A DNA stretch of 64,000 nucleotides from a virus (lineage: Duplodnaviria; Heunggongvirae; Uroviricota; Caudoviricetes). Shown piece after piece: positions 3,901 through 58,701 of the stretch. Made by a program: the position numbers and the translations under genes. Numbering within the stretch: position 1 is the stretch's first letter; each line of letters begins with the position of its first letter. Location: the IMG/VR virus record IMGVR_UViG_2703718815_000003. One strand, 5' to 3'. Below the pieces are notes generated by a model that was not told where the DNA came from, searched no databases, and worked only from the letters and a program-made list of their open reading frames with translations.

Positions 3901-5718
3901 CGTTTCCCCCTGCGCGATGTTAACGATGCGAACGCGCATAGGTTCGAGGTCTGGTTCTGTAATAGTCCAGACGCCGTTCAAAACAGGCGTTTCAGCCGAA
4001 GACAGGGCTTTTGAAAACGTAACTTTTGTTATATTTTCGCCAGTTTCAAGAACATCGCGTTCAACGATTTTGCCTTCCTGATTCAGTATTCGAATAAAGC
4101 AGCCGCCTTTGGCTAACGACACAGGCGCATCGAGTGTGACGCTGTTTTTGGTAAACGCCACAATTCGACCTGAGTTACGTTTGCCTGCGCGATATTTGTT
4201 CTGAATCAGAACGGTTTCACCAGGCATCAGAAATGACGCGTCTAAGCCGGCAGTAAATGTAATTACATCCGACTCCATTCTGGCGGTATATAAAAGCCAC
4301 AAACCAACTCGGTGAGCCTGCCCTCGGCTTGTACAGCCAAATGCTACGACTTCTGTCTTACGTTCACCATAACGGCGCATTGCGTCCTGATCTTCAACGT
4401 ACTCGATGTTTTGCTTATAACCGTCCTCCTTGTTGTTGTAGGTTACGAGCGCAACGGATGGGCGATCTTTACGCGCAGAACCTTTATAGGTAAACAATCC
4501 ATCTTTGACGTTAGAGTTGGTAAACATCATTACCGGATCTGATGGGCTATCCTGCATGATGTTAACCATGCCACCAGCCCAAAACACCATACCGCGGAAT
4601 GCACCGGCAATATCCTGAATTAATCGGTATGCGTCCTGTCGACTGGTGATCTGCGTATTGATTGCAAAGCGTTTCTCTTTGCCACCAAAGCCATCATCGA
4701 CCTCTTCGTCACAATATCGACCAATCTGGTACAACTGGCCAAGGTCAATCATAGATTCCGACACATACTGACCAAGGCCATATCGAGCATTGGTCAGCAA
4801 ATCAAAGAGAATCCACGCGGGGTTTGAAGAAGACAACAGCTTAAAAGTGCCATCCCATACACCATCATAAGTGTTGCTGGCCTCGTTGTAGTTTGACGGC
4901 ACGCGAATTTTTAATCCACGTACCAAATACGAACGAGATGGCATGGTGCTACCAAACTGCTCAGAATTAACCTTCAGACCCACCAGCACAGAGTTTGGGT
5001 AGTTCATCGGTGTATCTACAATCTCACCTATTGAGTCCACCCATGTATCGTTATAGAGATACTGGCTGCTGTTATCATCGGTAATACGGACTACACGAAC
5101 CTTGTACGCGCGTCCAGGCTTAGGCAGCTTCAGCTCATAGCTACGGTAATAAACACCTGTCTTCTTTGCTGTTAGCTTAATGCCAACGCTTTTTTCACCT
5201 TCTGCGACCACATCTACAAATGTTGAGTCGCCATTTGCTATCTGGAACTTGTACTCAACAGTCGTACCGTTCGTGTCACCAGTTTTTTTATCTATGCTTC
5301 GCAAAGAAGGAAACTTCATGATGACACGAACCCGATCAGCTTCATCGTTATCGATTGAAACCGTTACATAATGTGTTTTTTTTAACTGGATATTGACGGA
5401 TTTAGGCGTTTCAACGAAATCAAAGCCAGACATTGGAGTCTGGTCTTGTGAACCGTCGCGAAAATCCCATGTGATTCCGCTGAAGTTGGAGGAACCGTCT
5501 TCATTTACAATCGGCAGATCGTCGATAAAAATAGATCTTGCGCCATTTACTAAGCCGCCAATTACCCCTTCCCCAAGAAGATCGAGGATAGCGGCCATTG
5601 CACGAGAATTTACGGTATCGTCGGCTTCAACCGGTGTACGGCTGGAGCTTTTGCTGCTTTTTTTACCACCCGCACCGGCAATAAACAGCGGTAGCTTTTT
5701 CTTCTTGAACTGTTCCAT
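991..5718 (-). CDS. central tail fibre / host specificity protein (lambda gpJ-like)
   Basis: About 1575 aa; position after I-like gene; long coiled-coil repeat region and distinct C-terminal domain. ORF-track start at 5724 is TTG; first ATG at 5716-5718 has AAGGA upstream. Confidence 0.8.
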   Translation of the reverse strand: MEQFKKKKLPLFIAGAGGKKSSKSSSRTPVEADDTVNSRAMAAILDLLGEGVIGGLVNGARSIFIDDLPIVNEDGSSNFSGITWDFRDGSQDQTPMSGFDFVETPKSVNIQLKKTHYVTVSIDNDEADRVRVIMKFPSLRSIDKKTGDTNGTTVEYKFQIANGDSTFVDVVAEGEKSVGIKLTAKKTGVYYRSYELKLPKPGRAYKVRVVRITDDNSSQYLYNDTWVDSIGEIVDTPMNYPNSVLVGLKVNSEQFGSTMPSRSYLVRGLKIRVPSNYNEASNTYDGVWDGTFKLLSSSNPAWILFDLLTNARYGLGQYVSESMIDLGQLYQIGRYCDEEVDDGFGGKEKRFAINTQITSRQDAYRLIQDIAGAFRGMVFWAGGMVNIMQDSPSDPVMMFTNSNVKDGLFTYKGSARKDRPSVALVTYNNKEDGYKQNIEYVEDQDAMRRYGERKTEVVAFGCTSRGQAHRVGLWLLYTARMESDVITFTAGLDASFLMPGETVLIQNKYRAGKRNSGRIVAFTKNSVTLDAPVSLAKGGCFIRILNQEGKIVERDVLETGENITKVTFSKALSSAETPVLNGVWTITEPDLEPMRVRIVNIAQGETPGSFDITAVENNPSKYEAIDNGATLIPQNTTVLDPTYSKPSNLQITEGTYLSSPGNLSVKLTATWEGKSPEYWISWRRSDENNVSNWQSARVTEEQYEIVNVAENGRYDFQLYAVSFNGKKTEIISAVYQVLGTMTPPDSPTSLTAVGDYRNVILNWVNPDSVDLDHINVYASQTNNLDTAKLIAESASTTFTHAGLGDSETWYYWVRASNKRGMLSPPNSNLGTEATTRDVLSFLTGKITSSELGQALLEDINSKASQEAVDELNEHINQSVESLEGAVNDVKEDIAELDKQFSDNLADFEIKFNERSDALENAQTELKGEVSATIDKVNEAFEKIDATDAAIVEIENTVSEHDKALANTVEAIKAARDEAAALIAKESEARVEGDAANAKQLEVLQSTVEESSAAVEEMKKTVAEVDRASAELTTNIEALAKTNIDLALRQDEDQHKQMVNNAKIATTQKTFADDMSAMATKVEEIRVEIGEDIKASILEESTARADGDEALAKRVTQLQSKFEGDISAAISTEQEARTSADEALTTQITQLESKVSNDIVAAIKEEQEARATEDSALASQITQLQAKVDDDISAAIRSEQEARASGDSALAKQINQLQSKVDGDISAAITQEQEARASADQALSREINSLRAQTGTDIAAAVAVETKARTDADSALSTQITSLTAKANDLKASLARETTARADGDTALTKEVSSLKAQTAKDISAAVAVETQARTDADSALSSQITKLTSQYKEDIKAAVATETKTRTEQDAALATQITNLESQTAANISAAVTTETKARTQADNALSGRIDTLKAEVNGNTATIQQQATAIADTNKKVSTAWTLKMETSTSGGQKYVAGIALGIDTTGLSQFLVQADRFGLVNSVNGKITTPFVIENSIAYMNGAYIKDGTITNAKVGDLQSTNFVSGRSGWRFGKNGTLEINGNSGGNGRLVINGQRIDVYDDNNVLRVRIGRL
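1480..2450 (-). repeat. intragenic tandem repeats of about 100 bp (about 34-aa coiled-coil units) inside J-like gene
   Basis: Recurring DNA units (e.g. gctcgggcctcctgctc about every 100 bp) and protein units DISAAI..EQEARA..D.AL..QI..L. Confidence 0.6.
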
Positions 5719-5735
5719 GTTCAAAAAATCCTTGT

Positions 5736-6329
5736 TTACATTAGCTGGTCAATCGTGATTGAAGAACTCACAACCTGTGAGCCAACCAGAATTTCCTCGC
5801 CATAGATAAGTTGTACTGGGTTGCCCTGGTTTTCTGTATTTTGAGGGCCGTCGAAATAATAAGAGTTCGAGTTATCTGCCTGTCTCACACTTTCGTTAGT
5901 GGCTTGCGGCGATATGATTTGTGATATGCCGCCCATCATCAGTGACAAACCGAGAGGTGCTAAAGCAGGCATCACTACCGCCGATACAACCAACAAAGCG
6001 GCCCCTACTACCGTCTGAAACCACCCAAAAGCAGATCCACCGCTTCCTCGCGGAACAGGTGTAATGCGGATTTTGGCAATGTTGTCAGACTGCCCCATCA
6101 TCTGATATTCACTTTCGTCAACAGACCACTTGTGGCCCTGTTTATTGGTGATCTGGATGTGGTAACGGTCATAGGTTTTGATATTGCGCTTCATCCATGC
6201 TTTAAACCCAGGCTTGTTGGCCTCAATTAAATCCAGAGCCTGTTTTGTATTGCGCACCTTTAGATGCCAGTGGCGGCCAAAATGTTTGGCCATAGGGCCG
6301 CCAAGCTGCACATGAACTAACTCAGACAC
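5736..6329 (-). CDS. tail assembly protein (lambda gpI-like)
   Basis: 197 aa; hydrophobic central segment, Gly/Pro-rich C-terminus; position between K-like and J-like genes. Confidence 0.55.
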   Translation of the reverse strand: MSELVHVQLGGPMAKHFGRHWHLKVRNTKQALDLIEANKPGFKAWMKRNIKTYDRYHIQITNKQGHKWSVDESEYQMMGQSDNIAKIRITPVPRGSGGSAFGWFQTVVGAALLVVSAVVMPALAPLGLSLMMGGISQIISPQATNESVRQADNSNSYYFDGPQNTENQGNPVQLIYGEEILVGSQVVSSSITIDQLM

Positions 6330-7141
6330 GTCTCATCTCCCTTGAGCAAGTCTCTGTGACGCAAGTGATGCGTCGTATGTTTCTGATACATTCCGCCGTA
6401 ATAAGCACGACAACTAAGACGGTCGATCTGGTGATGAAGAATCATTCCATCGCCGATATAAACCGCGCAGTGATCTGGCATTTTCCCGTATTGAATAAAG
6501 AAGACGTCCCCACGTTGAGGCTCTGTTCCAGGTGCAAGCCGTACCAATCCCTCGTTTCGGTAGTTCTGGTCGAGAATGTCGTTATCGCCGGTGTACCACG
6601 ATGGAATATGCAGGTGTGCGTTCGGGTTAAGCTCGACGTTAAACTCACGCTTCAAATAGTCCCGACACAACATCCAGCAATCGAATACGCCAAATACATA
6701 CGGTCTACCCAGGTATGGCATTTCGAAACCATCAGGTGTGATCACATTCATCTCGCTAAAATGGAAAGGGGCATCTCCCTCAACATTCTTGCGAATAGCC
6801 AGAATCATCCACGGAACTTCCGTCGCTTCACAGCCTGCACGATCGGCATCAGATGCTTCTGCTGATTCATCAGTATGTGAATGCCAGATTGCGATTACGT
6901 CACCTGCATCCTCTGCCGCCATAATGTCGTCAACGTGCATTACAAAAGTGTTCTGCGGGTTCTCCGAAACATTTCGCGCTTCCATAAAGCGATATTTGTC
7001 GCCATTAGTTCTCACCAGAAAGCCACACGCTTCATTAGGGTAGCGATTTATGGCGCAGAGATAGATTTGCTGCATAACATCAGAGCCAAGCTCAGGGATT
7101 GCTTTATTACCCATATCGCGTAGCTCCAATAAACCCGCCAA
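6317..7141 (-). CDS. tail tip assembly protein (lambda gpK-like; MPN/JAMM + NlpC/P60)
   Basis: JAMM-like HSHTD...S..D motif followed by NlpC/P60-like Cys...His region; domain order as in lambda K. Confidence 0.7.
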   Translation of the reverse strand: MAGLLELRDMGNKAIPELGSDVMQQIYLCAINRYPNEACGFLVRTNGDKYRFMEARNVSENPQNTFVMHVDDIMAAEDAGDVIAIWHSHTDESAEASDADRAGCEATEVPWMILAIRKNVEGDAPFHFSEMNVITPDGFEMPYLGRPYVFGVFDCWMLCRDYLKREFNVELNPNAHLHIPSWYTGDNDILDQNYRNEGLVRLAPGTEPQRGDVFFIQYGKMPDHCAVYIGDGMILHHQIDRLSCRAYYGGMYQKHTTHHLRHRDLLKGDETCLS

Positions 7142-7805
7142 AATGGATCACTCCGTTGGCAAAATAATTCCGACGCGCATTACAGGCGTCATAACGTTTT
7201 GTGCAGTAATCAGCACCAGACATAGACGTCTGCTGGTTATTTTTGTCGAAATATGGACCGGTATAGCCGCATTCTGGCCCTCGGTATTTCCACGGGCAGG
7301 TGTTTTTAATGATCTGACGATACGGCAGTTGCACCCCCATCAAATCGAACACACTGGACAATTCAAACTCGACAACCTGATGAGTTTCGAGAGTTTTCTG
7401 TTCGATAAACCACATTTCATCCGGGAAATGTTGGTTTGGATCTGCTGTTGGGTTGCCGTCTTTAAAATTAACGGCATCGAGGAAGCGAGCCAGCGTCATC
7501 TTGCGAATAATGCGGCAGCCAACAAGATCGTCGTTCGCCTGAACTTCCGCAGAGACGGTTCCGGCAAAGTTCGATACCTGAATTTTTGGACGTGGCAACG
7601 TTCCCTGGCCAGTTTTGTCAAAGCCTGATGCTTTGATTGGCCACGGCTCGTATGTCACTCCTTGCCAGACGACAGGTTGCATCAGTTCGTTTGTTCCGGC
7701 GTGGAAGAATAACTTCCCCCCTGAAGTTGTGTTCGACATATCCAGTACGAACAACTCAATGAGTGCAGAGGGAGATAAGCTCTGAATATCAGCTTTAATT
7801 CCCAT
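7107..7805 (-). CDS. minor tail protein (lambda gpL-like)
   Basis: Conserved C-terminal Cys cluster (C..C......C); start moved to ATG at 7803-7805 with AAGGATG upstream (track start is non-ATG). Confidence 0.65.
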   Translation of the reverse strand: MGIKADIQSLSPSALIELFVLDMSNTTSGGKLFFHAGTNELMQPVVWQGVTYEPWPIKASGFDKTGQGTLPRPKIQVSNFAGTVSAEVQANDDLVGCRIIRKMTLARFLDAVNFKDGNPTADPNQHFPDEMWFIEQKTLETHQVVEFELSSVFDLMGVQLPYRQIIKNTCPWKYRGPECGYTGPYFDKNNQQTSMSGADYCTKRYDACNARRNYFANGVIHFGGFIGATRYG

Positions 7806-7887
7806 TGTTTCATCCTTGAAATAAGTAGGCGCTAACATCCTGTCAGCGCCACAATGATAGTAAATTAGTACTTACTTATCTAGATAC

Positions 7888-8223
7888 TTAAGCCTCAAAT
7901 ACTTGTCTGAATGTAGCTGTTAAGACACAGTACCCCTGATATCGCTTGACCGTATGACTGTCACATACAACTACAATCCGTTTTCCTCTTGGATTAACCC
8001 AATAGAACGACTCAACGCCTGCTCGCTCAGTCAGGAAGTCATCGATTGCATTAATTTCGTTGTATGATCTGGTAAGGGTTAACGACCATTCTTCTTTAAT
8101 ACGATTAAGACCTTGAGCCTGTCGCTGCTCGTAGTCATCACCAAAATTAAGTACCGTTACATTCGGTTTTACGCTTTTTTCAGATTCGTAATCTGGATAC
8201 CAATTAAACGTTTGTCTTTCCAT
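7888..8223 (-). CDS. minor tail protein (lambda gpM-like)
   Basis: 111 aa, immediately downstream of tape measure, upstream of L-like gene. Confidence 0.5.
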   Translation of the reverse strand: MERQTFNWYPDYESEKSVKPNVTVLNFGDDYEQRQAQGLNRIKEEWSLTLTRSYNEINAIDDFLTERAGVESFYWVNPRGKRIVVVCDSHTVKRYQGYCVLTATFRQVFEA

Positions 8224-8240
8224 CTCACATCCTTGTGAGA

Positions 8241-8258
8241 CTGCCCCGGTCGGGGCAG
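8241..8258 (-). other. GC-rich hairpin between tape measure and M-like gene
   Basis: ctgccccg gt cggggcag; no T-run, so not a canonical terminator. Confidence 0.3.
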
Positions 8259-8265
8259 TCGATAG

Positions 8266-11200
8266 TTAGTTACGTTGAGTGTTTGGGTTGAGTGATCCGC
8301 CAGGGCGTTTCTCTTGAGCGATAGTCTCAAGCGCGATTGCTTTCATCCGTTGAGCGGCATTGTTCCATATGCTTTCTGTATCGCCGGATTCAGTTGTGCT
8401 ACCGTCACTATGGACGTTGATCTCAATTGATACCGGAGAAAGAACATTTCCTCCTCCACTCATACCATCGGTACTGAGCGTTACAGGGATTGTTCGACCA
8501 TCAGGCAATGGAACATACGCCTCATTCATATCGCCTTCCCCAAACAACGCCAATTGAGGTGAGTTGGCGATACCGCCTTTCTGGTATGCCCGGAGCGGGA
8601 TCACGCCGTCTTTTCCGAATATGCCACCATTTGCAAAATTCGGAATTGCAGGAATACCATTCGTGCCATCGGCAGCAGAACTGGTCAGATTGTTGAACCC
8701 GGAAGTTGAGCCAGAAGAACCGGACATCAATCCATCGAATCCACCACCAGCCCATACTGAAACCAACCCAGATGCAACTGTCGCGCCGAAATTCAACCAC
8801 TTATTACCAGAGCCGGAAGCATTAGCTCCAAGCATTGCAAACGCGGCAGACAGAGCACCGGTAACAGAGCTGAGGTTCTGCATCGAGAAGATGGAATCCT
8901 TCACTGCTTTTGTCTCAGCATCTTTGGCTTCGGTGCTATCAAATAGCCCTGATACCCAGCTACCAATCGCATTTGTTGCTGTGCCAATTGCGCTGGTGGT
9001 CTGCTGTGTCGTTTGCCCCAATCCAGTTACCGAACTGGACGTCTCCTTCGTGGCTTCTCCTACCGACTTGTCGCCGTTAACAGTGTTGCCCATTCGTACC
9101 CCTTGATTGGCAACGGCGGAAGCAACCCCGGTCAGCAAATTACCACTCTGTGAACTACCAGCTGCGGTGGTTCCCATCCCCAACATGTTCATTAGAGGCA
9201 GCGTGATCTGCGACTTCACGACCATATTGGTGATATCTTTCAAAATGGACTGAGATAGGCTGGAGAAGCTCATCTTCCCGTTAATAACGAAATCAGTCAG
9301 GACATCAGTTAAGCCACTAAACAAATCAGTCCAGGTGCTTTCGATCTGCTCTGCCAGGTTTTCGTATTCCAGTGCCAACTTCTGCGTCGCAGTCCCTGTC
9401 TCTTTAATGAGCGCGGTATTGCCAGCAGCAATAAGTTGATTGATTTTCTTTGTATAAAGCGCCACGACTTTAGGATCAGACGCCTTATCACGAAGTTCTA
9501 TCAACGCTTTGAGATTGCGGTTGTAGGTGTCTTCGAAATCAGCAACTTTCTCTTCGCGAGACGGCGTATAGCCAGCACTAATAATGGAATCCGCCTCCGG
9601 TGCCCAAGTGGAGATCATCTGCTCAACATTGCGGCGATTAAACATCTCGCGATATTCAGGTGTCGCATTTTTGAGGTCTTCAAGACGTTTTTTCGCCTTG
9701 TCGATCATCTCTTGAGTGATGAACTCGTTAGGAACCGCATTAGCCAAATCTGTCAGCGATTTCGTTGTATCGCGAAGAGACTGATCAAACGATACCGTAG
9801 CCTTAGAGCTTTCACCCATTTGCCCCATAAGCTGATCGGCTTTGTCCAGAGCCTTCTGGTATCCGGCTGCCAGTTTCTGTTGCGCTGCCTGTTCCTTCTT
9901 GGCCGCACGCTGCGAGGCGTTAGCTGATCGTTGGGCTGCTTTCTCGGCTGCTGCTGCATCCTGTTCACGAGCTTTAGTCAGTGCGGCAATGGCTGCGGCA
10001 CGCTCTTCATCGCTCATTTTCTCCAGAGAGCTGGCGCTGGATGCTTTCTGCAAATTAAGCTGCGTCTTGAGTTGTTTAGGCCCAATAATCGGCTTACCTT
10101 CGAAGTCCATCATCGGAGTGCCGTCAGGCAAAGTACGTTGATAAGTCGCAGAATCCATCTGGTTTCGCATATATTGCGCCAGCGCCTTCTGAGCTGCTTT
10201 ATCAGTTGTACCTAACCCAAGAACAGTCCCCTGGTTTGACATTACGCCCTTACCAGTTTTGGCCGCGTTATCTCTCTCGAACTCTGCCTGAGTCAGTTCC
10301 TGAGCAACGGTTTCCAAATGCTCCTGATAACCACGAATACTGCCTTGAAGTTTCTGGATCTGCTCGGTATTTCCATCTTTTTTGGCTTTTTCAAGCTGAT
10401 CATTAAGAGTCGCTATTTGCTTCTCGGTCGCATTCTTACGAGAAGAAAGTGAATCAACCAGTTTTTGCGCAGGCTCCAGATAGCTTTTGTTTACCGTTTC
10501 ACGTAACGGTGCCAATAGTTTGTTCTTTTCGTCATCAGAAAGTGAATCGTCATCATTGATTTTTTGGATCTTCTCCAGAGCCTCTTGACGAGCTTTAGCG
10601 AATGTTGCCGCAAAGTCTCTATTCTCTTCCCGTATTTTCTCTATCTGTGATTCTGCCGCATCTTTTGCAAGACGTTTGGCTACAGCAATGTCTCCGCGTT
10701 CAATTGCCCCAGTAGTTTTATCGCGTTTCTTACGAAGGTCATTTAGCTCATTTTCTATACGCTTACGTTCATCCTGATTAATCTTTACTGTAGTTCCGGC
10801 CATACCCGGCCCATAAACCACCTTTTCGCCAGATTTTAACTCTTGTTCCTTTTGCGTGATTTGTTGCTCAAGACGCGCTTTATACTCCGCCATCTGTGCA
10901 CGTTTGGCCGCTGTCATCGCTTCTGGTATTTTCCTAATCTCGTCAACGACCTTTGAAGTTTCGCTGCGGAGCATGGTCATGTACGTGATTAGGCCAGCAA
11001 CAGCTACAGTGGCAACTGTAAATGCTGCCCCTATAGGGTTTGCTGCAATGAACGCCGTTAATCCAGCAAAAGCGCCTTTAAGCCCCGTAATCTCCCCACG
11101 GATGGCGAAAATAAGAGAGGGGATCGGAGCCAGCCCCATACGTGCCGCACGATTGAATCGAGTTACTGCTGTAGCGCCGAGGTTAAATGGAGTCTGTATG

Positions 11201-12864
11201 GCGGTCGCCATCGTGGCAAAGGTGCTAACCATCTGGCTCCCAGCGCCAACTACCCCCATGATCCCTGCTCGCATCAGTTTGAACGCAACCATCGCGGCCA
11301 CGACCTTACCGAGATTAATTACCAGCTCTTGGTTCTTTGCTAACCATTGAGCAAGCTGACGCAACCCATCGATTGCCGTTGTTAACCCCGAACCTAAAGA
11401 ATTGGCAAACGAAATCCCTTCGGCGCTATTCATGATTGAAGCCAGTTCTTTCATCCCCTTCGATAGAGAATCCAGATATCCGGCCTGACCAACCCGATCA
11501 GCAAATAACGTGAATGACGTCTGAAGTTGCGCCAGCGCACCTGTGTAGGTTTGCATCATGTCTTTCGCTGCGTTCTCATTCTCCGCACGCAGACCAACAA
11601 ACATCAGAGACAACGCCTGTTTTGCCTCAACCGTACCGCTGGCAACGGCTTTAGTCAGTTCCCCCATAGTGATGCCTGCGGCGTCTGCCATTGCCTGCAT
11701 CGCGTTAGGAACGGCTTCACCTAATTGCTGACGTAGCTCTTCCATTGACACAACGCCCTTACCGGACATCTGCTGAACGGCCACAGCCGCACGTTTCAAC
11801 AGCTCACTATCACCACCAAAACGAGCAACGGAGTCCACCAGCGCCTTCAGAGAACCATCGGTTGGATCTAAGCCAGCAGAACGAAACTTCACGAAGGAGT
11901 CTGTTAACGCCTGCATCGCGAACGGCGCATTTTGAGCCATGTCTACGATGTACTTCATGTCATCGGCGGCAGCCTGGCCAGGGTTGGACTTCTCCTTATT
12001 CAACCCTCGAAGCATCACCCGCATACGTTCCATTTCGGCCGCAGCTTCAACAATAGGCTTCTGCCACCCAAACATGATGTCAGTAACCGTTCTGGCTGCA
12101 TCTCCGATCTCGCCAAGCAGGAAAATGTTGCCACGAAGGCCAGAGAACATACCTCCTTCGTTACTTTTACCGCTATGGCCAGAAGCGCCGCTACGCCGCC
12201 CGCTACCACCATCGCCACTTCCAGATGTACGAACGCGTACCGGCTTGCTAATCAGTTGCTGACGTCCGATAACTTCGTCCATCTGCTCACGAACCTTTTT
12301 CAGTCCCTCGGCAGCCTGACTCGTTGTGACACCCCAATTACTGAGTCGCTTCGTCGTGGTATTAAGGCGCGTATTCATGCCACTCACGGACGCAGAGGCT
12401 TCTTTGACCTCCGTACCAAAGCGGCTTGCGCTTTTGCTTGCATAGGTCGCCCAATCAGAGAAATCATTTAGCTCTGATTGCACTTTACGTAATGACGCGG
12501 TGAGTTTATCTACTGAAGAAGCTGTCGTATCGACGCGCTCAATCAGGGCTTTAAGACCAGAATTGAGGTTGGTGATGTTGCCACGCATTTTACGCGTAGC
12601 ATCTGAAGCAAGCTCAAAACCGGCAGCTACATCCTGTAGTTTATCTGCCGTAGAATCGAGCTTGCTTTCCAGAACGCCAATGATACGGGCGACCGAACCC
12701 AAAGAGCGTTCAAAGGTTTGGATTTTTTGAGCAGGCTTTGTTACCTGCTCACCAAATCGAGTAAGCAGTTTCCCCGCACGATCGATTGACGCTGTAAACT
12801 GTTTGTCTTCCAGCGACAGGATAAACTCTACGTTTTGTGACATTCCCTGGTCATCCTCTGCCAA
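8266..12864 (-). CDS. tail tape measure protein
   Basis: 1532 aa, coiled-coil rich with central hydrophobic segments and Gly-rich C-terminus; sits between G/GT chaperones and distal tail genes. Confidence 0.85.
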   Translation of the reverse strand: MAEDDQGMSQNVEFILSLEDKQFTASIDRAGKLLTRFGEQVTKPAQKIQTFERSLGSVARIIGVLESKLDSTADKLQDVAAGFELASDATRKMRGNITNLNSGLKALIERVDTTASSVDKLTASLRKVQSELNDFSDWATYASKSASRFGTEVKEASASVSGMNTRLNTTTKRLSNWGVTTSQAAEGLKKVREQMDEVIGRQQLISKPVRVRTSGSGDGGSGRRSGASGHSGKSNEGGMFSGLRGNIFLLGEIGDAARTVTDIMFGWQKPIVEAAAEMERMRVMLRGLNKEKSNPGQAAADDMKYIVDMAQNAPFAMQALTDSFVKFRSAGLDPTDGSLKALVDSVARFGGDSELLKRAAVAVQQMSGKGVVSMEELRQQLGEAVPNAMQAMADAAGITMGELTKAVASGTVEAKQALSLMFVGLRAENENAAKDMMQTYTGALAQLQTSFTLFADRVGQAGYLDSLSKGMKELASIMNSAEGISFANSLGSGLTTAIDGLRQLAQWLAKNQELVINLGKVVAAMVAFKLMRAGIMGVVGAGSQMVSTFATMATAIQTPFNLGATAVTRFNRAARMGLAPIPSLIFAIRGEITGLKGAFAGLTAFIAANPIGAAFTVATVAVAGLITYMTMLRSETSKVVDEIRKIPEAMTAAKRAQMAEYKARLEQQITQKEQELKSGEKVVYGPGMAGTTVKINQDERKRIENELNDLRKKRDKTTGAIERGDIAVAKRLAKDAAESQIEKIREENRDFAATFAKARQEALEKIQKINDDDSLSDDEKNKLLAPLRETVNKSYLEPAQKLVDSLSSRKNATEKQIATLNDQLEKAKKDGNTEQIQKLQGSIRGYQEHLETVAQELTQAEFERDNAAKTGKGVMSNQGTVLGLGTTDKAAQKALAQYMRNQMDSATYQRTLPDGTPMMDFEGKPIIGPKQLKTQLNLQKASSASSLEKMSDEERAAAIAALTKAREQDAAAAEKAAQRSANASQRAAKKEQAAQQKLAAGYQKALDKADQLMGQMGESSKATVSFDQSLRDTTKSLTDLANAVPNEFITQEMIDKAKKRLEDLKNATPEYREMFNRRNVEQMISTWAPEADSIISAGYTPSREEKVADFEDTYNRNLKALIELRDKASDPKVVALYTKKINQLIAAGNTALIKETGTATQKLALEYENLAEQIESTWTDLFSGLTDVLTDFVINGKMSFSSLSQSILKDITNMVVKSQITLPLMNMLGMGTTAAGSSQSGNLLTGVASAVANQGVRMGNTVNGDKSVGEATKETSSSVTGLGQTTQQTTSAIGTATNAIGSWVSGLFDSTEAKDAETKAVKDSIFSMQNLSSVTGALSAAFAMLGANASGSGNKWLNFGATVASGLVSVWAGGGFDGLMSGSSGSTSGFNNLTSSAADGTNGIPAIPNFANGGIFGKDGVIPLRAYQKGGIANSPQLALFGEGDMNEAYVPLPDGRTIPVTLSTDGMSGGGNVLSPVSIEINVHSDGSTTESGDTESIWNNAAQRMKAIALETIAQEKRPGGSLNPNTQRN

Positions 12865-29838: not shown

Positions 29839-30453
29839 TTGGATTATCATGATATGAAAATGAAACTTTCGTTACTCCTTGCTTGTATATACCTCCCGGC
29901 GTTTTCCGCCAACGCATTATCAGATTTCGTCTATGACATGCAAAAAACGTACAGCATGTTTACCTCCGAAGACGTAGTAGAATACAAATCACGAGGTCTG
30001 AATCAGCCAGTTTGGTTCAGATTCTCAGACAACGCAGAAGAAACAATACTTAATGGAGGAAAAGAAAGATTACGGTTGCAAATTAACGGGACCGCTGTAC
30101 CAGAAAACGTTAATGTAAGCTCTGACGAAGCCATGAAGCCATCTGGAATTGTTTTAGAAGTTCAAGACGGCACACTTTACTGTGATGAAATGGCTACAAC
30201 AGGTTGCCAAGTAAACATTAGGGTTGGCAATGAAGAGCCTATCGTTACTTACGCCAAGGCTGAAGGGAATACAAGTGGAAAGGTATTGTTTATCGATGAA
30301 AATATCTCAAAACGTATCGTTCGTGACATACAGAAAACAGCTAACTCTAAATCCGTCGATAAAAAAATCTATGTTGAGGTTCCCTTCTTTGTCGTTGGTA
30401 ACAAAGAATTTAAATTTGGGTTGCTGAAAACACCTCTAAGAGTATCAGAATGA
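29839..30453 (+). CDS. predicted secreted protein
   Basis: N-terminal signal-peptide-like MKMKLSLLLACIYLPAFSANA; exact start uncertain (ATGs at 29839, 29854, 29860). Confidence 0.5.
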   Translation: MDYHDMKMKLSLLLACIYLPAFSANALSDFVYDMQKTYSMFTSEDVVEYKSRGLNQPVWFRFSDNAEETILNGGKERLRLQINGTAVPENVNVSSDEAMKPSGIVLEVQDGTLYCDEMATTGCQVNIRVGNEEPIVTYAKAEGNTSGKVLFIDENISKRIVRDIQKTANSKSVDKKIYVEVPFFVVGNKEFKFGLLKTPLRVSE

Positions 30454-30974
30454 GAACATTGGACATCACCTACGGCATACCGGCTGAAGTCTGGCCGCGA
30501 GACTACGAACATGCTGAGAACATACTTATGTTCTGGCGGAAGAACAACATTCCTGTAAGAGTCACGCTTGAAGACGGTCAGGTGTTTTGCATGTACGTTC
30601 AGGGGACAATGCCTTCACGCAATAAGCTAGATTTATGCCCGATTCCATATGATAAAGAAAATCGTATAAGACTCCCACTTGAGCGCATTAGCACAATTGA
30701 ATCAGGTGTAATCGATGGCATTGCTCGCGAGTTCAAAGGTAGGCTAACAATACATCCAGACTATGTTGACAATCAGCCATCACGCCGTGACTTTTTTGCG
30801 ATATGTCGCAAGGCTTATCAAAACGACCAATCTATAAGGGTCTACATGACAGACGGTCGTGAAATAGAAGGGGTGTCAAGAGGCGTTGATGCTTGCCAGG
30901 TCACTCTTAAGTTAGAAGACGGCAGAAAAATACTTGTTTTCTTCGATTGGGTTGAACGAATCCTTCCATTTTAA
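30450..30974 (+). CDS. hypothetical protein
   Basis: 174-aa ORF overlapping previous stop. Confidence 0.5.
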   Translation: MRTLDITYGIPAEVWPRDYEHAENILMFWRKNNIPVRVTLEDGQVFCMYVQGTMPSRNKLDLCPIPYDKENRIRLPLERISTIESGVIDGIAREFKGRLTIHPDYVDNQPSRRDFFAICRKAYQNDQSIRVYMTDGREIEGVSRGVDACQVTLKLEDGRKILVFFDWVERILPF

Positions 30975-38677: not shown

Positions 38678-40711
38678 TTACTTAACTTGGTGGCCTGGTT
38701 TAGCACCAGCATCCGGGCTTAACAGGAAGATATCTTTTCCGCCAGGGCCAGCAGCCATCACCATGCCTTCGGAGATACCGAAGCGCATTTTACGCGGTGC
38801 CAGGTTAGCCACCATAATGGTGTGACGACCAATCAGTGCCTGTGGGTCTGGATAAGCAGAACGGATGCCTGAGAAGACATTGCGTTTTTCACCGCCGAGA
38901 TCCAGCGTCAGGCGCAGCAGTTTGTCAGAACCTTCAACAAACTCTGCGTTTTCGATCAGTGCCACGCGCAGGTCAACTTTGGCAAAGTCGTCAAAGGTGA
39001 TGGTTTCCTGAATCGGGTCGTCTGCCAGCGGGCCAGTAACTGGCGCGGCAGCTGCTTTCACTTCTTCTTTGGATGCTTCCACCAGTGCTTCAACCTGCTT
39101 CATATCGATGCGGTTATACAGTGCCTTGAACGGATTCACTTTATGGCCCAGCAGCGGTTGCTGGATACCATCCCAGGTCAGTTCTGTATTCAGGAATGCT
39201 TCTGCACGTTCAGTCAGTTTCGGCAGTACCGGCTTCAGGTACGTCATCAGCACGCGGAACAGGTTAATGCCCATAGAGCAAATCGCCTGCAGATCGGCAT
39301 CGCGTCCTTCCTGCTTCGCCACCACCCACGGAGCCTGTTCATCGACATAGCGGTTAGCCAGGTCAGCCAATGCCATGATTTCACGGATAGCTTTACCAAA
39401 TTCACGGCTTTCCCATGCTTCGCCAATCACTTCAGCGGCATCAGTAAAGGTTTTGTACAGTTGCGGGTCAGCCAGTTCGCTTGCCAGCACGCCGTCAAAA
39501 CGCTTGTTGATAAAGCCTGCATTACGGGAGGCCAGGTTAACCACTTTGTTCACGATATCGGCATTCACGCGCTGAACGAAATCCTCCAGGTTGAGATCGA
39601 TATCATCAATGCGCGAAGAGAGTTTCGCAGTGTAGTAGTAACGCAGGCTGTCAGCGTCAAAATGATTCAGCCAGGTGCTGGCTTTAATAAAGGTGCCGCG
39701 AGACTTGGACATCTTCGCGCCGTTCACCGTCACATAGCCGTGAACAAACAGGTTGGTCGGCTTGCGGAAGTTGCTGCCTTCCAGCATGGCAGGCCAGAAC
39801 AGGCTGTGGAAGTAAACAATATCTTTACCGATGAAGTGGTACAGCTCGGCGGTGGAGTCTTTCTTCCAGTATTCATCGAAGCTGGTGGTATCGCCGCGCT
39901 TGTCGCACAGATTCTTGAAGGAACCCATGTAGCCAATCGGCGCGTCCAGCCAGACGTAGAAATATTTGCCCGGCGCGTTCGGAATTTCAAAACCGAAGTA
40001 GGGCGCATCTCGGGAGATATCCCACTGTTGCAGGCCGGATTCAAACCATTCCTGCATTTTGTTCGCCACCTGCTCCTGCAACGCGCCGCTGCGGGTCCAT
40101 GCCTGCAACATTTCGCTGAAAGAAGGCAGATCAAAGAAGAAGTGTTCGGAATCACGCATTACCGGGGTAGCGCCAGAAACCACCGATTTCGGCTCGATCA
40201 ATTCAGTCGGGCTATATGTTGCGCCGCAGACTTCACAGTTATCGCCGTATTGATCTGGCGCTTTACATTTCGGGCAGGTGCCTTTTACAAAACGATCCGG
40301 CAGGAACATGCCTTTTTCCGGGTCGTACAACTGAGAGATAGTGCGGTTTTTAATAAAACCGTTCTCTTTCAGGCGAGTATAGATAAGCTCAGACAACTGA
40401 CGGTTCTCTTCGCTGTGCGTCGAGTGATAGTTGTCATAGCTGATGTTAAAGCCTGCGAAATCAGTCTGGTGTTCCTGACTCATTTCGCCAATCATCTGCT
40501 CCGGTGTGATACCAAGCTGCTGTGCTTTCAGCATGATCGGCGTACCGTGGGCATCGTCGGCACAGATGAAATTAACCTCGTGGCCGCGCATTCGCTGGTA
40601 ACGAACCCAGACATCAGCCTGGATGTGCTCCAGCATATGGCCGAGGTGGATTGAGCCGTTAGCGTACGGCAGCGCGCACGTCACCAGAATTTTCTTCGCG
40701 ACTTGGGTCAT
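38678..40711 (-). CDS. metG: methionyl-tRNA synthetase (host-type MetG)
   Basis: 677 aa from [26 protein letters not shown]; class I motifs SIHLGH and KMSKS, CPKC/CEVC zinc knuckle, C-terminal tRNA-binding domain. Matches enterobacterial MetG as I recall it, not verified by search. Confidence 0.95.
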
Positions 40712-40868
40712 AGTAGGCATTACTTCTTTGTAGTGAAAAGGGGCTTGATAGTAACAAAATGGCCTTATGTCTGCCATGTGATAACAGCATTTCTCATAAA
40801 TGATTAAATGTCGTAGCTGGAGTACACTACAAGGCGACAATTGCGCAAATTAAAATAAAGGAGACGGG

Positions 40869-41969
40869 ATGAGCGAGTCCAAATCGCCGGATGCCCTGAG
40901 AGCAATGGTAGCCGGTACGCTGGCTAATTTTCAGCACCCAACCCTGAAACACAACCTGACTACGCTTAAAGCGTTACACCATGTTGCGTTGATGGATGAC
41001 ACACTGCATGTCGAACTAATCATGCCTTTCGTGTGGAATAAGCCTTTTGAAGACCTGAAAGAGCAATGTAGTGGTGATCTGCTCCGTATCACTGGCGCAA
41101 AGGCTATTGACTGGAAGCTGTCGTACAACATTGCCACGCTTAAGCGCGTCAAAAACCAACCAGGCATTAATGGCGTTAAGAACATTATCGCCGTCAGCTC
41201 AGGCAAGGGCGGCGTGGGTAAATCCTCCACGGCGGTAAACCTGGCACTGGCGTTGGCTGCTGAAGGTGCGAAAGTTGGTATTTTGGATGCCGATATCTAT
41301 GGTCCATCAATTCCAACCATGCTGGGCGCGGAAAACCAACGTCCAACCTCACCTGACGGTACTCACATGGCACCTATCATGTCTCATGGCCTGGCAACCA
41401 ACTCTATTGGTTATCTGGTCACCGACGACAATGCAATGGTGTGGCGTGGACCGATGGCGAGCAAGGCGTTAATGCAGATGTTGCAGGAAACATTGTGGCC
41501 TGATCTGGACTATCTTGTTCTCGATATGCCGCCGGGCACTGGTGATATTCAGTTGACGCTGGCGCAGAACATTCCTGTAACTGGTGCTGTTGTGGTAACT
41601 ACGCCGCAAGACATCGCGCTGATCGATGCGAAGAAAGGCATTGTGATGTTCGAAAAAGTCGAAGTGCCGGTACTTGGTATCGTCGAAAACATGAGTGTGC
41701 ATATTTGCAGTAACTGCGGTCATCACGAGCCAATTTTTGGCACCGGTGGCGCAGAGAAACTGGCCGAGAAATACAACACGCAGTTGTTAGGCCAAATGCC
41801 ACTTCATATCTCTCTTCGTGAAGATCTGGATAACGGAACACCAACCGTTATTAGTCGTCCAGATAGTGAATTTACGGCTATTTATCGTGACCTCGCAGAT
41901 CGCGTTGCTGCCCAAATGTATTGGCAAGGTGAAGTAATACCTGGCGAAATCGCATTCCGCGCAGTGTGA
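40869..41969 (+). CDS. apbC: Fe-S cluster carrier ATPase ApbC/Mrp
   Basis: Mrp/NBP35 P-loop SSGKGGVGKS and CSNCGH motif; divergent from metG as in enterobacterial chromosomes. Confidence 0.95.
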   Translation: MSESKSPDALRAMVAGTLANFQHPTLKHNLTTLKALHHVALMDDTLHVELIMPFVWNKPFEDLKEQCSGDLLRITGAKAIDWKLSYNIATLKRVKNQPGINGVKNIIAVSSGKGGVGKSSTAVNLALALAAEGAKVGILDADIYGPSIPTMLGAENQRPTSPDGTHMAPIMSHGLATNSIGYLVTDDNAMVWRGPMASKALMQMLQETLWPDLDYLVLDMPPGTGDIQLTLAQNIPVTGAVVVTTPQDIALIDAKKGIVMFEKVEVPVLGIVENMSVHICSNCGHHEPIFGTGGAEKLAEKYNTQLLGQMPLHISLREDLDNGTPTVISRPDSEFTAIYRDLADRVAAQMYWQGEVIPGEIAFRAV

Positions 41970-41970: not shown

Positions 41971-41994
41971 AAAAAGGCGGTGCATTGCACCGCC
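41971..41994. terminator. hairpin terminator between apbC and UmuD'-like gene
   Basis: ggcggtgca t tgcaccgcc with A-run on plus strand (T-run on minus). Confidence 0.5.
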
Positions 41995-42006
41995 TAATCA
42001 GTTCTC

Positions 42007-42396
42007 CTACATCACGGGACAATCATCAAACTCGCCACTTCTTGCGTCGTTGATAATGTGAGTGATCACACCAAACACGGCATTGCTGCCCGTGCATCCA
42101 TCGTCATCCTTTGGCAATGCTTCCTTCTTACCGGTTCTTAAATCCTCCAGATGCTGACGTGGGTACTTCCGGTATCTTTTTACGCGATATTCCCCATCCA
42201 GAGCGCATACAAGCAGAGAACCATCAACCGGGGTAAGTGAGGAATCGACCACCAGCAATGCACCCTGTAATATTCCCTCACGATGATGACTATCAGCTGC
42301 CCTCATGAAGTAGGTCGCTGAAGGATGTCTAATTATCTGCTGATCAAGAGAAATACGGCTCTCAGCATAATCCGCCGCAGGAGAAGGGAAGCCCAT
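42007..42396 (-). CDS. UmuD'-like S24 peptidase-fold protein (pre-truncated UmuD homologue)
   Basis: Starts MGFPSPAADYAE...HPSATYF, i.e. at the UmuD segment after the RecA-cleavage site; Ser (AADSH) and Lys (VKRYRK) positions retained; no umuC partner; AGAGG RBS. Confidence 0.75.
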   Translation of the reverse strand: MGFPSPAADYAESRISLDQQIIRHPSATYFMRAADSHHREGILQGALLVVDSSLTPVDGSLLVCALDGEYRVKRYRKYPRQHLEDLRTGKKEALPKDDDGCTGSNAVFGVITHIINDARSGEFDDCPVM

Positions 42397-42412
42397 AATA
42401 CTCGCCTCTTAA

Positions 42413-42432
42413 TACTGTATACACATACAGTA
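42413..42432. promoter_or_regulatory. LexA (SOS) box
   Basis: TACTGTATACACATACAGTA, perfect CTGT-N8-ACAG, about 17 bp upstream of UmuD'-like start. Confidence 0.75.
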
Positions 42433-42728
42433 TATATTGAAGCTATATATTTTTGAACTCTATCTCTTAAAAAAGATGTTAATAAGATGCTAACTATTGA
42501 AAGGCATAAATATATACAATTCAAACAAACGTTATTTTTAACAAATTTTTTCTTCCCATTGACTTTTTCGAACGCCTTGTCCGGTCTAAAGTGCGCAGAA
42601 GTCACTTTTTCCTTCCTGAGTTATCCACAGGCTTATGCACTTGCATGAAAAATCTATTCACACTATCTTAATTCGCAAGACACTGATGTTGCAGTATTGA
42701 GGGTATGTTGGGTTAAAAATAGACATTA

Positions 42729-42758
42729 AAAAGCCCAGTTGACTAGGCTGGGCTTTTT
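42729..42758. terminator. bidirectional intrinsic terminator
   Basis: aaaagcccag ttgactagg ctgggcttttt. Confidence 0.55.
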
Positions 42759-43058
42759 AAAAGGAAACAGAGTTTGCGGCTCTGTTCCTGAGCCATAAGT
42801 ATCTGGCGACTGAATTAAGATTAACCGAATGTACTGGATTCATCAAGAAAGGTTGAGTGGTCATACCAGGTAATAATGACCATTTACTAAACATCGTTGT
42901 TCTCAAAGAAGATTTAAGTCCAGGTTTTTGGTGACTCTAAAACCTTACCTTAACTCGAAATCGTGCCGTAAGTATCTGGCGACTACAGATATTGCAACTG
43001 CAAAGGCAAGCCCAAAGGTATTTGCAGCTAGGCGCGATAAAACTAAGTGAGGCCTGTT

Positions 43059-43142
43059 ATGGTTAACTTACTGTTCAAAATCGTGCCGCCGATGTTCGCG
43101 ATTATCAAAGCGATCATTGAGTACGTAAACCAGCGTCCATAA
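43059..43142 (+). CDS. small hydrophobic peptide (27 aa)
   Basis: MVNLLFKIVPPMFAIIKAIIEYVNQRP; GTGAGG 6 nt upstream of ATG; hairpin terminator follows; below ORF-track threshold. Confidence 0.35.
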   Translation: MVNLLFKIVPPMFAIIKAIIEYVNQRP

Positions 43143-43155
43143 CGCTAGTTGCTAC

Positions 43156-43180
43156 AGGCCCCATCAAGAGCATGGGGCCT
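43156..43180. terminator. hairpin terminator
   Basis: aggccccat caagagc atggggcct 9-bp stem. Confidence 0.5.
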
Positions 43181-43197
43181 CTTTATCGTACTATTGC

Positions 43198-50968: not shown

Positions 50969-51538
50969 TCAATTAGAGCTTTGAAAGACTTTGTGTGGTT
51001 GTGTTGCGAGGTTATGTCGATGGCTTAACTCACGCATCATGTCTTCAAGCCGACTCTTTGTGTCGTCGAGTTGGTCGGCCATTGCTCCCAAAAGCTGACG
51101 AACGGCCATCGGATCATCGCTGTTTAGTGATGGCATTTTATAACCCGCCTGAGAAGACATAAGATTGAACGCAGACATCAACATCGTTAGAGAGGATTTA
51201 AGCCCAGCAATTTCACGATCTTTGCTGGCAATAATCGCCTCACTCTTGTTAGTGTCATCAGTTCGTTGAGTCTCGCTCACCATATCCAAAGTCGCCTGCA
51301 ACTTATCAGCGCGCTCTTTTTCAGCAAGATAATGAACACCGAAATGATGTGCTAAAGCTACAACCTGAGTTGGCTCTTCAAAGGTGGACTCAAAATTAAG
51401 TGCTGTAACCACTCTCTCAAATATGGAAACGTCTTCTATTCCTCGAAGAATGGCTAACATTTTGACCAGTTCATTAGCATCCATTTCTTCGAATAAGGCG
51501 TTTTGTTCATCAGCTATCGCTTTGCATTTCTTGCACAT
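50969..51538 (-). CDS. hypothetical protein
   Basis: 189 aa; early motif gccaataagaaaacaacttgtttaagc upstream. Confidence 0.5.
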   Translation of the reverse strand: MCKKCKAIADEQNALFEEMDANELVKMLAILRGIEDVSIFERVVTALNFESTFEEPTQVVALAHHFGVHYLAEKERADKLQATLDMVSETQRTDDTNKSEAIIASKDREIAGLKSSLTMLMSAFNLMSSQAGYKMPSLNSDDPMAVRQLLGAMADQLDDTKSRLEDMMRELSHRHNLATQPHKVFQSSN

Positions 51539-51677
51539 GTGTTTTTCCTAATGCTTAAACAAGTTGTTTTCTTATTGGCTTTATTGTGATGTGGCATAAA
51601 AGGGGAGCAAGCTAAACGTAAAGGTGCAAACTCTCTATTTCGGTCAACGAAACACAAGGGCCATTTGGCCCTTGTCA

Positions 51678-51836
51678 TTAACACGTTGCTTTACGGACTA
51701 GCGGATAAGCGAAGTAGATCGCCAGACCAATGAGGACGCCATCAGAAATGACAGACATCATCTTTCCCGTAAAATCCACCAACACCGCCATCACCAGAAG
51801 AGCAATGACGATCACAAGCCGGAATCTCTCAAGCAT
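51678..51836 (-). CDS. small membrane protein (52 aa)
   Basis: Hand translation MLERFRLVIVIALLVMAVLVDFTGKMMSVISDGVLIGLAIYFAYPLVRKATC; below ORF-track threshold. Confidence 0.3.
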   Translation of the reverse strand: MLERFRLVIVIALLVMAVLVDFTGKMMSVISDGVLIGLAIYFAYPLVRKATC

Positions 51837-52261
51837 TAGAGATAAGCATCCAGTGACAACTGAAGCGCCTGGGCGATCTTTTTCAGTGCCTGCTCTTCTT
51901 GTTCACCAATGCCGTCCTGATCGGCAATATCAAGGCACAGACACAGAACATCGACCGCCTCTGGAGTACCCGCAATATCAGACAGCTCACGAATAGCCTG
52001 TGCATTAGCAGAACGAGGGGACGCTTCGTAACGAGCACGGATATTGGCGCTCATTTGGGCAATTTCACCAGCAAACGGAGAAAACGCAGGCAGAGCTGCA
52101 ATTGTCTTCTCAAGAATGGCAATTTCTTTTGCGTCACATGTGCCGTCGGCATAGGAGATCATGTACGCGCCCCACACGGTGGCCTCAACCGCATCACGGT
52201 TCTCCATTTTTTTGACTTCGATAACAGCTTTACGAGTTTTCTTTTTGAAGAAACCTAACAT
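51836..52261 (-). CDS. hypothetical protein
   Basis: 141 aa; early motif upstream. Confidence 0.5.
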   Translation of the reverse strand: MLGFFKKKTRKAVIEVKKMENRDAVEATVWGAYMISYADGTCDAKEIAILEKTIAALPAFSPFAGEIAQMSANIRARYEASPRSANAQAIRELSDIAGTPEAVDVLCLCLDIADQDGIGEQEEQALKKIAQALQLSLDAYL

Positions 52262-52354
52262 GTGCTTTCCTTTTATTATTTGTCAAAACAAGTTGTTTTC
52301 TAATTACATAAATTGCTTACGCAGAGATGGTCAATGCATATGCACTAACAGCCG

Positions 52355-52543
52355 TCAGAAATAACCAAGTACCGAACCAACTGGAAAAACAAAAATCCCA
52401 ACTACACGAGCCAAGGTCATGCCAGCCTGAAACTGGAGATCGCCAGAGCAAACAAGTTTTATAATGTTCGATACCCAACCGGCGGCCATAAGGGCAAGAA
52501 TTGCCAGCCAAATTTTTCCAAAGTGATTTGAAAACCAGTTCAT
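52355..52543 (-). CDS. small membrane protein
   Basis: 62 aa with two hydrophobic segments. Confidence 0.4.
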   Translation of the reverse strand: MNWFSNHFGKIWLAILALMAAGWVSNIIKLVCSGDLQFQAGMTLARVVGIFVFPVGSVLGYF

Positions 52544-52552
52544 ACAACCGCC

Positions 52553-57580: not shown

Positions 57581-58225
57581 CTAATGAACGGTCACTCGGC
57601 CACAGAACCGGTTTTCTATCTTTTCTACAGCGTTATCTAGCATTCTCATCACTGATCTGGCTCTTGCTTCAACCGTGCGATATCGGTTGGAAACGACGAA
57701 GGTTTGCAGATCTCCCCTTTGCGGATGCAGGTGAATTTTTGTCAGTTCCCCGCACATCAACGCATCAATACGAGCGACATACAGACGGTCTAATGATGCT
57801 CGTTGTGATCGCAAGTAATCTCGCTCTGAGAGAGCGACTCCCGGGCGTAAGCCAGCAATGGCGTTAAAGTTTGAAATAGCAGTTTTGTGGCAAAACTTTT
57901 CGATATCGAGGGCTAACTCAATACACCGATCTTCATTTGTATGGCCGACCAAATCCAACGTGTAGGCCATAACATCAGCAGGTGTGCGATCGATAACAAA
58001 GCCTTCAACACCACGCGTAAGTAGCTCTATATGCTTTGCTATTTCCATTTGAATCTGAAGCCGCTCATATAGAGGCATAGAATCACCTACTCGAACACCG
58101 AGGCGGCTCATCAAACTTCCGACACCAGCATCCACGTAAGGGATTCCGTAATGTTTGTCGATATATTTAGCCAGGGTTGTTTTCCCACTGCCCTGAGCAC
58201 CAGTGATCCCAATCCGGTAATCCAT
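57581..58225 (-). CDS. P-loop kinase (candidate dNMP/nucleoside kinase)
   Basis: Walker A GAQGSGKTT near N-terminus; location in nucleotide-metabolism module. Confidence 0.55.
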   Translation of the reverse strand: MDYRIGITGAQGSGKTTLAKYIDKHYGIPYVDAGVGSLMSRLGVRVGDSMPLYERLQIQMEIAKHIELLTRGVEGFVIDRTPADVMAYTLDLVGHTNEDRCIELALDIEKFCHKTAISNFNAIAGLRPGVALSERDYLRSQRASLDRLYVARIDALMCGELTKIHLHPQRGDLQTFVVSNRYRTVEARARSVMRMLDNAVEKIENRFCGRVTVH

Positions 58226-58701
58226 TACGACCTTCTGTATACGATCTGCGAAAAGCCAGGCTCTTCCTCGCTGGCTCGTTGGGTATAAGCTGTTTCAACA
58301 GGCACAAAGCCTAAATTACGCATCATGCTTGCCGGGAAGAATGCATCGGCGTTTGGCACATCAACGCCGATGTGGGAGAGCCAAATCTCTTCAACATGCG
58401 GCATGAATAGCGAGTAAATTTGTTCCCCGCCAATCACCCACACAGGCTCTGGTAATCGCAACACATCATCCACACCAGCAGGGTAGAATCCATTTGGTAC
58501 AAAGCCATGAGAGCGCGTCAAAACGAGGTTATGACGCTCTGGAAGAGGGCGTTTGAGACTTTCCATCGTTTTACGCCCCATAACGACAGTGGCGTTTTTG
58601 GTGAGTCTCTTAAATAGCTTCAGATCGGTAGAACAACGCCAGGGGAGTTCATTCGCTATGCCGATCTCATAGTTACGGCCAACAGCAGCGATCATCTTCA
58701 T
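58225..58701 (-). CDS. frd: dihydrofolate reductase
   Basis: MKMIAAVGRNYEIGIANELPW N-terminus and VVMGRKT, VIGG motifs; 158 aa. Confidence 0.85.
   Translation of the reverse strand: MKMIAAVGRNYEIGIANELPWRCSTDLKLFKRLTKNATVVMGRKTMESLKRPLPERHNLVLTRSHGFVPNGFYPAGVDDVLRLPEPVWVIGGEQIYSLFMPHVEEIWLSHIGVDVPNADAFFPASMMRNLGFVPVETAYTQRASEEEPGFSQIVYRRS

Follow-up and report, generated by a model that had tools for sequence, protein, structure and literature searches.

What does a stand-alone UmuD'-like gene, set under a LexA box, contribute to the virus that carries it, and with which partner would its product act? The question is raised by positions 42,007 to 42,432 of a 64,000-nucleotide stretch of DNA from a tailed virus of the Caudoviricetes (the whole stretch is referred to here as the window). 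The initial annotation had described the gene as a UmuD' homolog made directly in the activated, post-cleavage form, lying about 17 bp downstream of a perfect LexA box, unaccompanied by umuC, and, since stand-alone homologs are known from P1-type phage-plasmids, indicative of a temperate or plasmid lifestyle and an SOS-coupled function. In outline such a gene is not new. The humD gene of the window, its family and its control by LexA are already in public records, where the protein is correctly named HumD in RefSeq, and descriptions of P1 dating from 1999 to 2004 reportedly covered the gene, the family, the pre-truncated design and the LexA control. The gene is very probably the ortholog of P1 humD, forming a self-contained SOS cassette on a phage-plasmid of the SSU5/Cyrano type and serving the UmuC of the host.

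The humD Gene and Its Truncated N-Terminus

The coding sequence and the signals closest to it are as follows.

42007..42396, minus strand: humD coding sequence, 129 aa plus stop, encoding a pre-truncated UmuD' homolog (from the list of open reading frames)
42405..42410, minus strand: Shine-Dalgarno sequence AAGAGG, 8 nt 5' of the ATG, read from the sequence and invariant in four related phage-plasmids
41975..41995, minus strand: hairpin resembling an intrinsic terminator and followed by a T-run, 12 nt 3' of the humD stop (terminator scan)

The N-terminus of the protein reads MGFPSPAADY. When aligned with K-12 UmuD (sequence verified against K-12), Gly2 of HumD pairs with UmuD Gly25, which is residue 1 of UmuD', and both the N-terminal arm and the cleavage site are missing, in agreement with the proposed start at the post-cleavage residue. 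A TAA codon lies in frame four codons 5' of the ATG, which rules out a longer N-terminus and means that the short start is no artefact of open reading frame calling. The catalytic dyad, for which alignment to UmuD had been recommended as a check, is kept in the window protein: Ser36 corresponds to UmuD Ser60, the nucleophile, and Lys73 to UmuD Lys97. Downstream of the gene, the terminator-like hairpin consists of a GC-rich 9-bp stem, with seven GC pairs, followed by TTTTATCACA. Comparison with P1 humD gave a dN/dS of 0.05 at a dS of 0.80, indicating strong purifying selection on the gene in the window.

Family Membership and Predicted Fold

Residues 1-129 of the protein match positions 1-129 of the 129-position NCBIfam HumD equivalog model NF051876 ('HumD family translesion DNA polymerase') with 219.8 bits, against a cut-off of 120. 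The RefSeq protein WP_000506720.1, which bears the same family name and is encoded by 100%-identical DNA in RefSeq plasmids, is identical to the window protein, as is the HumD of Escherichia phage Cyrano (100%). The closest characterized relative is P1 HumD at 91-92% identity, which bears out the view that the gene encodes a UmuD' homolog. The protein falls outside the UmuD type proper, scoring 87 bits on the UmuD autoproteolytic-subunit model NF007621 (cut-off 110), lacking the arm with Cys24-Gly25 and having no umuC operon. It likewise falls outside the LexA/CI-type repressors: the LexA model TIGR00498 gave 27 bits against a cut-off of 111, confined to model positions 91-166 in the C-terminal domain, and the protein has only 129 aa. 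Its sole Pfam match is Peptidase_S24.

A UmuD'-type S24 beta fold, as expected from the initial annotation, is supported by sequence comparison and by modeling. The solved UmuD' structure (PDB 1umu) was matched at 44% identity (E=6.7e-23), and the top five PDB hits returned by Foldseek for a HumD model were all UmuD' or UmuD (probability 1.00, TM 0.5-0.66). The model itself, an AlphaFold2 prediction from a 30-sequence alignment, is mediocre, with a mean pLDDT of 62 and a core of about 80; pLDDT falls below 50 in the N-terminal 23 residues and in the C-terminal tail, and the model therefore says nothing structural about the tail. Window HumD thus shares with E. coli UmuD/UmuD' (b1183; PDB 1umu, 1ay9, 1i4v, 8gmt) the predicted S24 fold, 44% identity and the dyad positions, but it differs in lacking the 24-residue N-terminal arm, the Cys-Gly site and an operonic umuC, and in two additions, a conserved C-terminal tail of 13 residues and a short insertion that precedes the last strand.

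LexA Operator and Promoter

Two further elements lie immediately 5' of the Shine-Dalgarno sequence.

42413..42432, no strand assigned: LexA operator TACTGTATACACATACAGTA (CTGT-N8-ACAG), 16 nt 5' of the humD ATG (consensus scan)
42429..42457, minus strand: sigma-70-like promoter with -35 TTCAAA (42457..42452), a 17-nt spacer and -10 TATACT (42434..42429), scoring 9/12 in a consensus scan

The 8-nt arms of the operator form a perfect palindrome, and both mismatches to the consensus fall in the central spacer. No other site with three or fewer mismatches from the 20-nt LexA consensus was found in the 64 kb, where none was expected from 100 dinucleotide-preserving shuffles, and the runner-up CTG-N10-CAG site has eight mismatches. 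The LexA box announced for this gene is accordingly present, perfectly palindromic in its arms and unique in the window; the distance needs correcting from about 17 to 16 nt. The operator of K-12 umuDC also carries two mismatches from the consensus and lies at a similar distance, 19 nt, from its ATG. The predicted -10 element overlaps the LexA box by 4 nt. The promoter is a pattern match, and such matches are no more frequent in this region than expected from shuffled sequence. Across four related plasmids the arms of the box, the Shine-Dalgarno sequence, the -35 and the -10 are invariant and the center of the box is variable.

LexA boxes are also located 5' of humD in P1, N15 (14 nt before the gene), Cyrano, Hafnia phage yong1 and HK140, where dinI diverges from a two-gene operon and the box stands ahead of both. 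In P1 the gap is 19 nt, compared with 16 nt in the window, and the site is recorded as common to humD and the divergent lxr (P1 GenBank record); humD has been listed as a LexA-regulated SOS gene (PMC9603915). LexA binding at 42413..42432 and the transcription start are predicted from the P1 ortholog, at 92% identity, and from the conserved architecture.

umuC Is Missing From the Element and Present in the Host Species

A UmuC probe identical to K-12 UmuC, and containing the IMS domains, found no umuC by tblastn in either the 64-kb window or the related plasmid pSTEC409_1 (best E=1.4). Nor is a Y-family polymerase present among the 128 annotated features of pSTEC409_1, a complete plasmid that is 98% identical to the window. 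The segments of the window that do not align to this plasmid are each 1.5 kb or less and are occupied by other open reading frames. The description of window humD as a gene without umuC is upheld by both the search and the annotation of the relative. In the host species, umuC DNA occurs in 5423 of 5426 complete E. coli genomes and is nearly always chromosomal. The humD contexts of Citrobacter prophages and Klebsiella N15-like plasmids have no nearby umuC either.

The Carrier Element and Movement of the Cassette

The window represents the reverse complement of a phage-plasmid; between the tail-fiber genes and nrdA it runs collinear with the 110.9-kb plasmid pSTEC409_1, to which it is about 98% identical. 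pSTEC409_1 encodes RepB and ParB as well as terminase, portal and capsid proteins, and it also encodes homologs of RecA and DnaE. For the structural module (window positions 1-25000), identity is 97.6% with Escherichia phage Cyrano and, across 82% of its length, 80.5% with Salmonella phage SSU5. Cyrano corresponds to the plasmid pLF82 of E. coli LF82, which has been described as an SSU5-like phage-plasmid with siphovirus virions (PMC9928086). By these sequence comparisons, the carrier is classified as a temperate siphoviral phage-plasmid of E. coli belonging to the SSU5 supergroup (Cyrano/pLF82-type). The temperate, plasmid lifestyle read from the presence of humD is in this way retained, with the refinement that the carrier is not of the P1 type: P1 is a myovirus (Punavirus). 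Annotation of humD is useful as a sign that the window belongs to an SOS-responsive, temperate phage-plasmid of SSU5/pLF82 (Cyrano) type.

SSU5 itself yielded no humD in a tblastn search, which makes the gene accessory within the SSU5 group. DNA similarity to hundreds of P1-like plasmids extends from about 10 nt 5' of the LexA box to the stop codon of humD. Confinement of the similarity to this interval shows that the LexA box and humD have moved together as a cassette, a unit that travels between unrelated phage-plasmid backbones. The flanks of the cassette differ: the divergent neighbor is lxr in P1 and a truncated open reading frame of the phrog_28987 group in the window, while phd-doc follows humD in P1 and apbC-metG follows it in the window.

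The HumD Family and Related Systems

Close homologs of HumD form more than 500 clusters, many already named HumD; nearly all are of 126-130 aa and derive from Escherichia, Citrobacter, Klebsiella, Enterobacter, Salmonella, Kluyvera and Trabulsiella. Such a gene is carried by 772 of 5426 complete E. coli genomes (about 14%), mostly on phage-plasmids, and stand-alone HumD genes are also found in phages of the N15/phiKO2, lambdoid and P22-like types and in enterobacterial prophages. The truncated start is a constant of the family, 29 of the 30 aligned members beginning with MGFPSPA and the remaining one with MAFPSPA. Equally constant is the 13-residue C-terminal tail, INDARSGEFDDCPVM in the window protein, which is nearly invariant in the 30 members and absent from the UmuD proteins of K-12 and phage Oslo. 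At the dyad positions of these 30 members the lysine is invariant and the serine is either Ser or Thr. In a more distant member from Hafnia phage yong1 (1501..1878; 44% identity) the MGFPSPA start and an SEFDD tail motif are retained and a LexA box precedes the gene by 15 nt, but Tyr and Arg replace the catalytic Ser and Lys, so peptidase chemistry seems to be dispensable in the HumD family.

P1 HumD (AAQ14181.1) resembles the window protein in its length of 129 aa, in having MGFPSPA at the UmuD' position and the C-terminal tail, and in being encoded by a stand-alone gene on a phage-plasmid. The truncated N-terminus, the tail, the LexA box and the stand-alone arrangement are also common to N15 gp26, phiKO2 gp23, HK140 gp28 and the UmuD-like protein of HK639, which are 64-71% identical to window HumD and have Thr in place of the catalytic Ser; in this set humD usually has dinI as its divergent neighbor or, in HK140, belongs to a two-gene operon. 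The back-to-back pairing with dinI is found in HK140, in Citrobacter prophages and in Klebsiella N15-like plasmids. A different arrangement is seen in the mobile umuDC-type operon of Salmonella phage vB_SosS_Oslo, in which the UmuD, although about 43% identical to window HumD, possesses the full N-terminal arm with its CG cleavage site, lacks the C-terminal tail and is followed directly by umuC.

Two Klebsiella contigs carry dinI-humD-sopB-sopA twice in 5682..12384, mirrored around a central gap, in what looks like a linear phage-plasmid of the N15/phiKO2 kind, either in its head-to-head (telomere-joined) form or as an assembly. In a further contig the genes dinI-humD-sopB-sopA adjoin that of the TelK protelomerase.

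Proposed Mechanism and Alternative Functions

As a pre-cleaved partner of host UmuC, HumD would act as follows. In the undamaged cell, host LexA bound at 42413..42432 would block the overlapping humD promoter. DNA damage would lead to RecA-stimulated self-cleavage of LexA and hence to derepression of humD, and HumD would be produced already in the UmuD' form, bypassing the slow RecA-mediated cleavage of UmuD to UmuD'; it should need no processing because its first residue corresponds to that of UmuD'. HumD dimers would bind the host's SOS-induced UmuC to give a polymerase V-like translesion enzyme, which would carry out error-prone replication past lesions in both host and phage-plasmid DNA. 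The partnership with UmuC and its mutagenic outcome are extrapolated from the P1 ortholog and from knowledge of polymerase V. Substitution for UmuD' alongside UmuC in SOS mutagenesis is known only for P1 HumD, which is the subject of an experimental paper (McLenigan et al. 1999, J Bacteriol 181:7005) and is stated in the P1 GenBank record to functionally complement E. coli UmuD'; it is predicted for the window copy. Phage-plasmids with humD could shorten the delay before error-prone synthesis under antibiotic-induced SOS, a putative link to mutagenesis under treatment.

A simple model in which HumD is a copy of UmuD' leaves the conserved 13-residue tail INDARSGEFDDCPVM unaccounted for. It is conceivable, though unlikely, that the HumD family is more than a pre-cleaved UmuD' and has a phage-specific function, such as the capture of host UmuC/UmuD or docking on the RecA/DnaE of the element, because the tail is near-invariant, the dyad is lost in distant members and the gene is repeatedly packaged with LexA-controlled morons (dinI, lxr, phrog_28987). 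If so, phage-plasmid replication would be sustained during SOS and mutagenesis would be a side effect.

It is also rather improbable that HumD mainly modulates other SOS or replication partners and so keeps the element replicating during SOS, with the conserved tail as the interaction surface. Possible partners would include the RecA filament, subunits of polymerase III, the element's own RecA/DnaE and host UmuD, in which last case a heterodimer with HumD could cancel the UmuD2C checkpoint. Such a role would fit a tail that is nearly invariant in 30 members, retained in the yong1 protein at 44% identity and missing from UmuD; the catalytic serine varies between S and T within the family and yong1 has lost both dyad residues, which places the conservation elsewhere. 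Two observations make partners besides UmuC possible: humD stands back-to-back with the gene for DinI, which modulates the RecA filament, in HK140, Citrobacter prophages and Klebsiella N15-like plasmids, and pSTEC409_1 encodes RecA and DnaE homologs. Nevertheless, the P1 protein, at 92% identity, is recorded as complementing UmuD', which is enough to explain the gene, and the AlphaFold tail, with its pLDDT below 50, is uninformative. Modulation and a polymerase V role are not mutually exclusive.

Some database names ('LexA family transcriptional regulator', 'S24 family peptidase') suggest instead a LexA/CI-type repressor or an active, self-cleaving S24 peptidase. The Peptidase_S24 match and the retention of Ser36/Lys73 in the window copy would agree with these names, but a protein of only 129 aa with neither a DNA-binding domain nor a cleavage-site region, scoring 27 against 111 bits on TIGR00498 and 87 against 110 on the UmuD model, and belonging to a family in which the dyad is not conserved, is very improbable in either role; the missing DNA-binding domain and cleavage site, and the loss of the dyad in relatives, rule them out. 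The chance that humD is a decaying, 5'-truncated umuDC remnant without function, as the missing UmuD arm and the lack of an adjacent umuC might imply, is negligible, and selection and conservation together effectively dismiss the idea, given a dN/dS of 0.05 at a dS of 0.80, the MGFPSPA start (one MAFPSPA) in 30/30 members and also in yong1 HumD at 44% identity, a dedicated Shine-Dalgarno sequence, LexA box, promoter-like site and terminator-like hairpin, and a full-length score on a curated equivalog model.

A role for HumD as antagonist of an S24-type repressor on the element was also considered and rejected, since the candidate regulator at 30450..30974 is FljA-like (Flag1_repress) and not of the S24 type. 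This gene, on the plus strand, encodes 174 aa with a 270-bit match to Pfam Flag1_repress (FljA-like phase-1 flagellin repressor) and a weak Hfq-like signal, and its product is labeled simply 'transcriptional regulator' in relatives.

The Divergent Open Reading Frame and the Upstream Spacer

On the other side of the LexA box lie two further features.

42487..42648, plus strand: small divergent open reading frame matching phrog_28987 (function unknown; PHROG E=5e-29, positions 1-53 of 80)
42732..42749, no strand assigned: bidirectional terminator-like hairpin with an A-run before and a T-run after it, invariant in four related plasmids (terminator scan)

The divergent frame is cut by a TGA to 53 of 80 codons in the window and is intact (80 aa) in pMTY13926_NA1; inspection of the alignment by eye suggests that it is also intact in Cyrano and p503829. 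The first 20 or so codons are invariant and the middle of the protein is highly variable. A promoter-like site on the plus strand (42409..42438) overlaps the LexA box, and the phrog_28987 frame may encode a second SOS-controlled product of the cassette, in a position like that of lxr in P1 and dinI elsewhere. The hairpin at 42732..42749 is a putative terminator of the divergent transcript that would insulate humD from the minus-strand genes upstream.

The 765-nt spacer 5' of humD (42433..43197) has no annotated gene in RefSeq relatives. Rfam searches of this spacer for a structured RNA or type I toxin gave sub-threshold matches only (AgrB, Thr_leader and OrzO-P), all centered on one terminator hairpin. 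AgrB is known as the antisense RNA to dinQ, a toxin under LexA control. Its match (42725..42806, minus strand) reached 27.6 bits against a gathering threshold of 40, with an E value of about 0.02-0.04, and is probably driven by the terminator; all three candidate RNAs were treated as chance or terminator-driven. A PADLOC search for defense systems returned nothing for HumD, its neighbors or the divergent frame.

Other Genes of the Element

A second strong LexA box, TACTGTTTACTTATACAGTA, is present in pSTEC409_1 at 2175..2194, 26 nt 5' of a frameshifted tyrosine recombinase gene (2221..3323); this site and the humD box are the only near-consensus LexA boxes in the 110.9-kb plasmid. In the window, humD adjoins a region (38678..41969) with metG (minus strand, about 38678..40711) and apbC (plus strand, 40869..41969), which encode a full methionyl-tRNA synthetase and an Fe-S carrier and are divergent as on the E. 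coli chromosome. The metG/apbC of the phage-plasmid shares about 90.5% identity with its chromosomal counterpart; complete E. coli genomes contain 222 plasmid-borne copies. As cited in PMC12452169, a preprint on Shigella sonnei (Tam et al. 2024) has tied phage-plasmid metG to antimicrobial survival. Further along the window, from about 51000 to 64000, lies a nucleotide-metabolism block in which a 158-aa open reading frame (58225..58701, minus strand) matches by position the RefSeq DfrA51 (trimethoprim-resistant) of pSTEC409_1, whose gene lies near those for thymidylate synthase, nrdA, nrdB, an exonuclease, RNase HI and an adenine methyltransferase.
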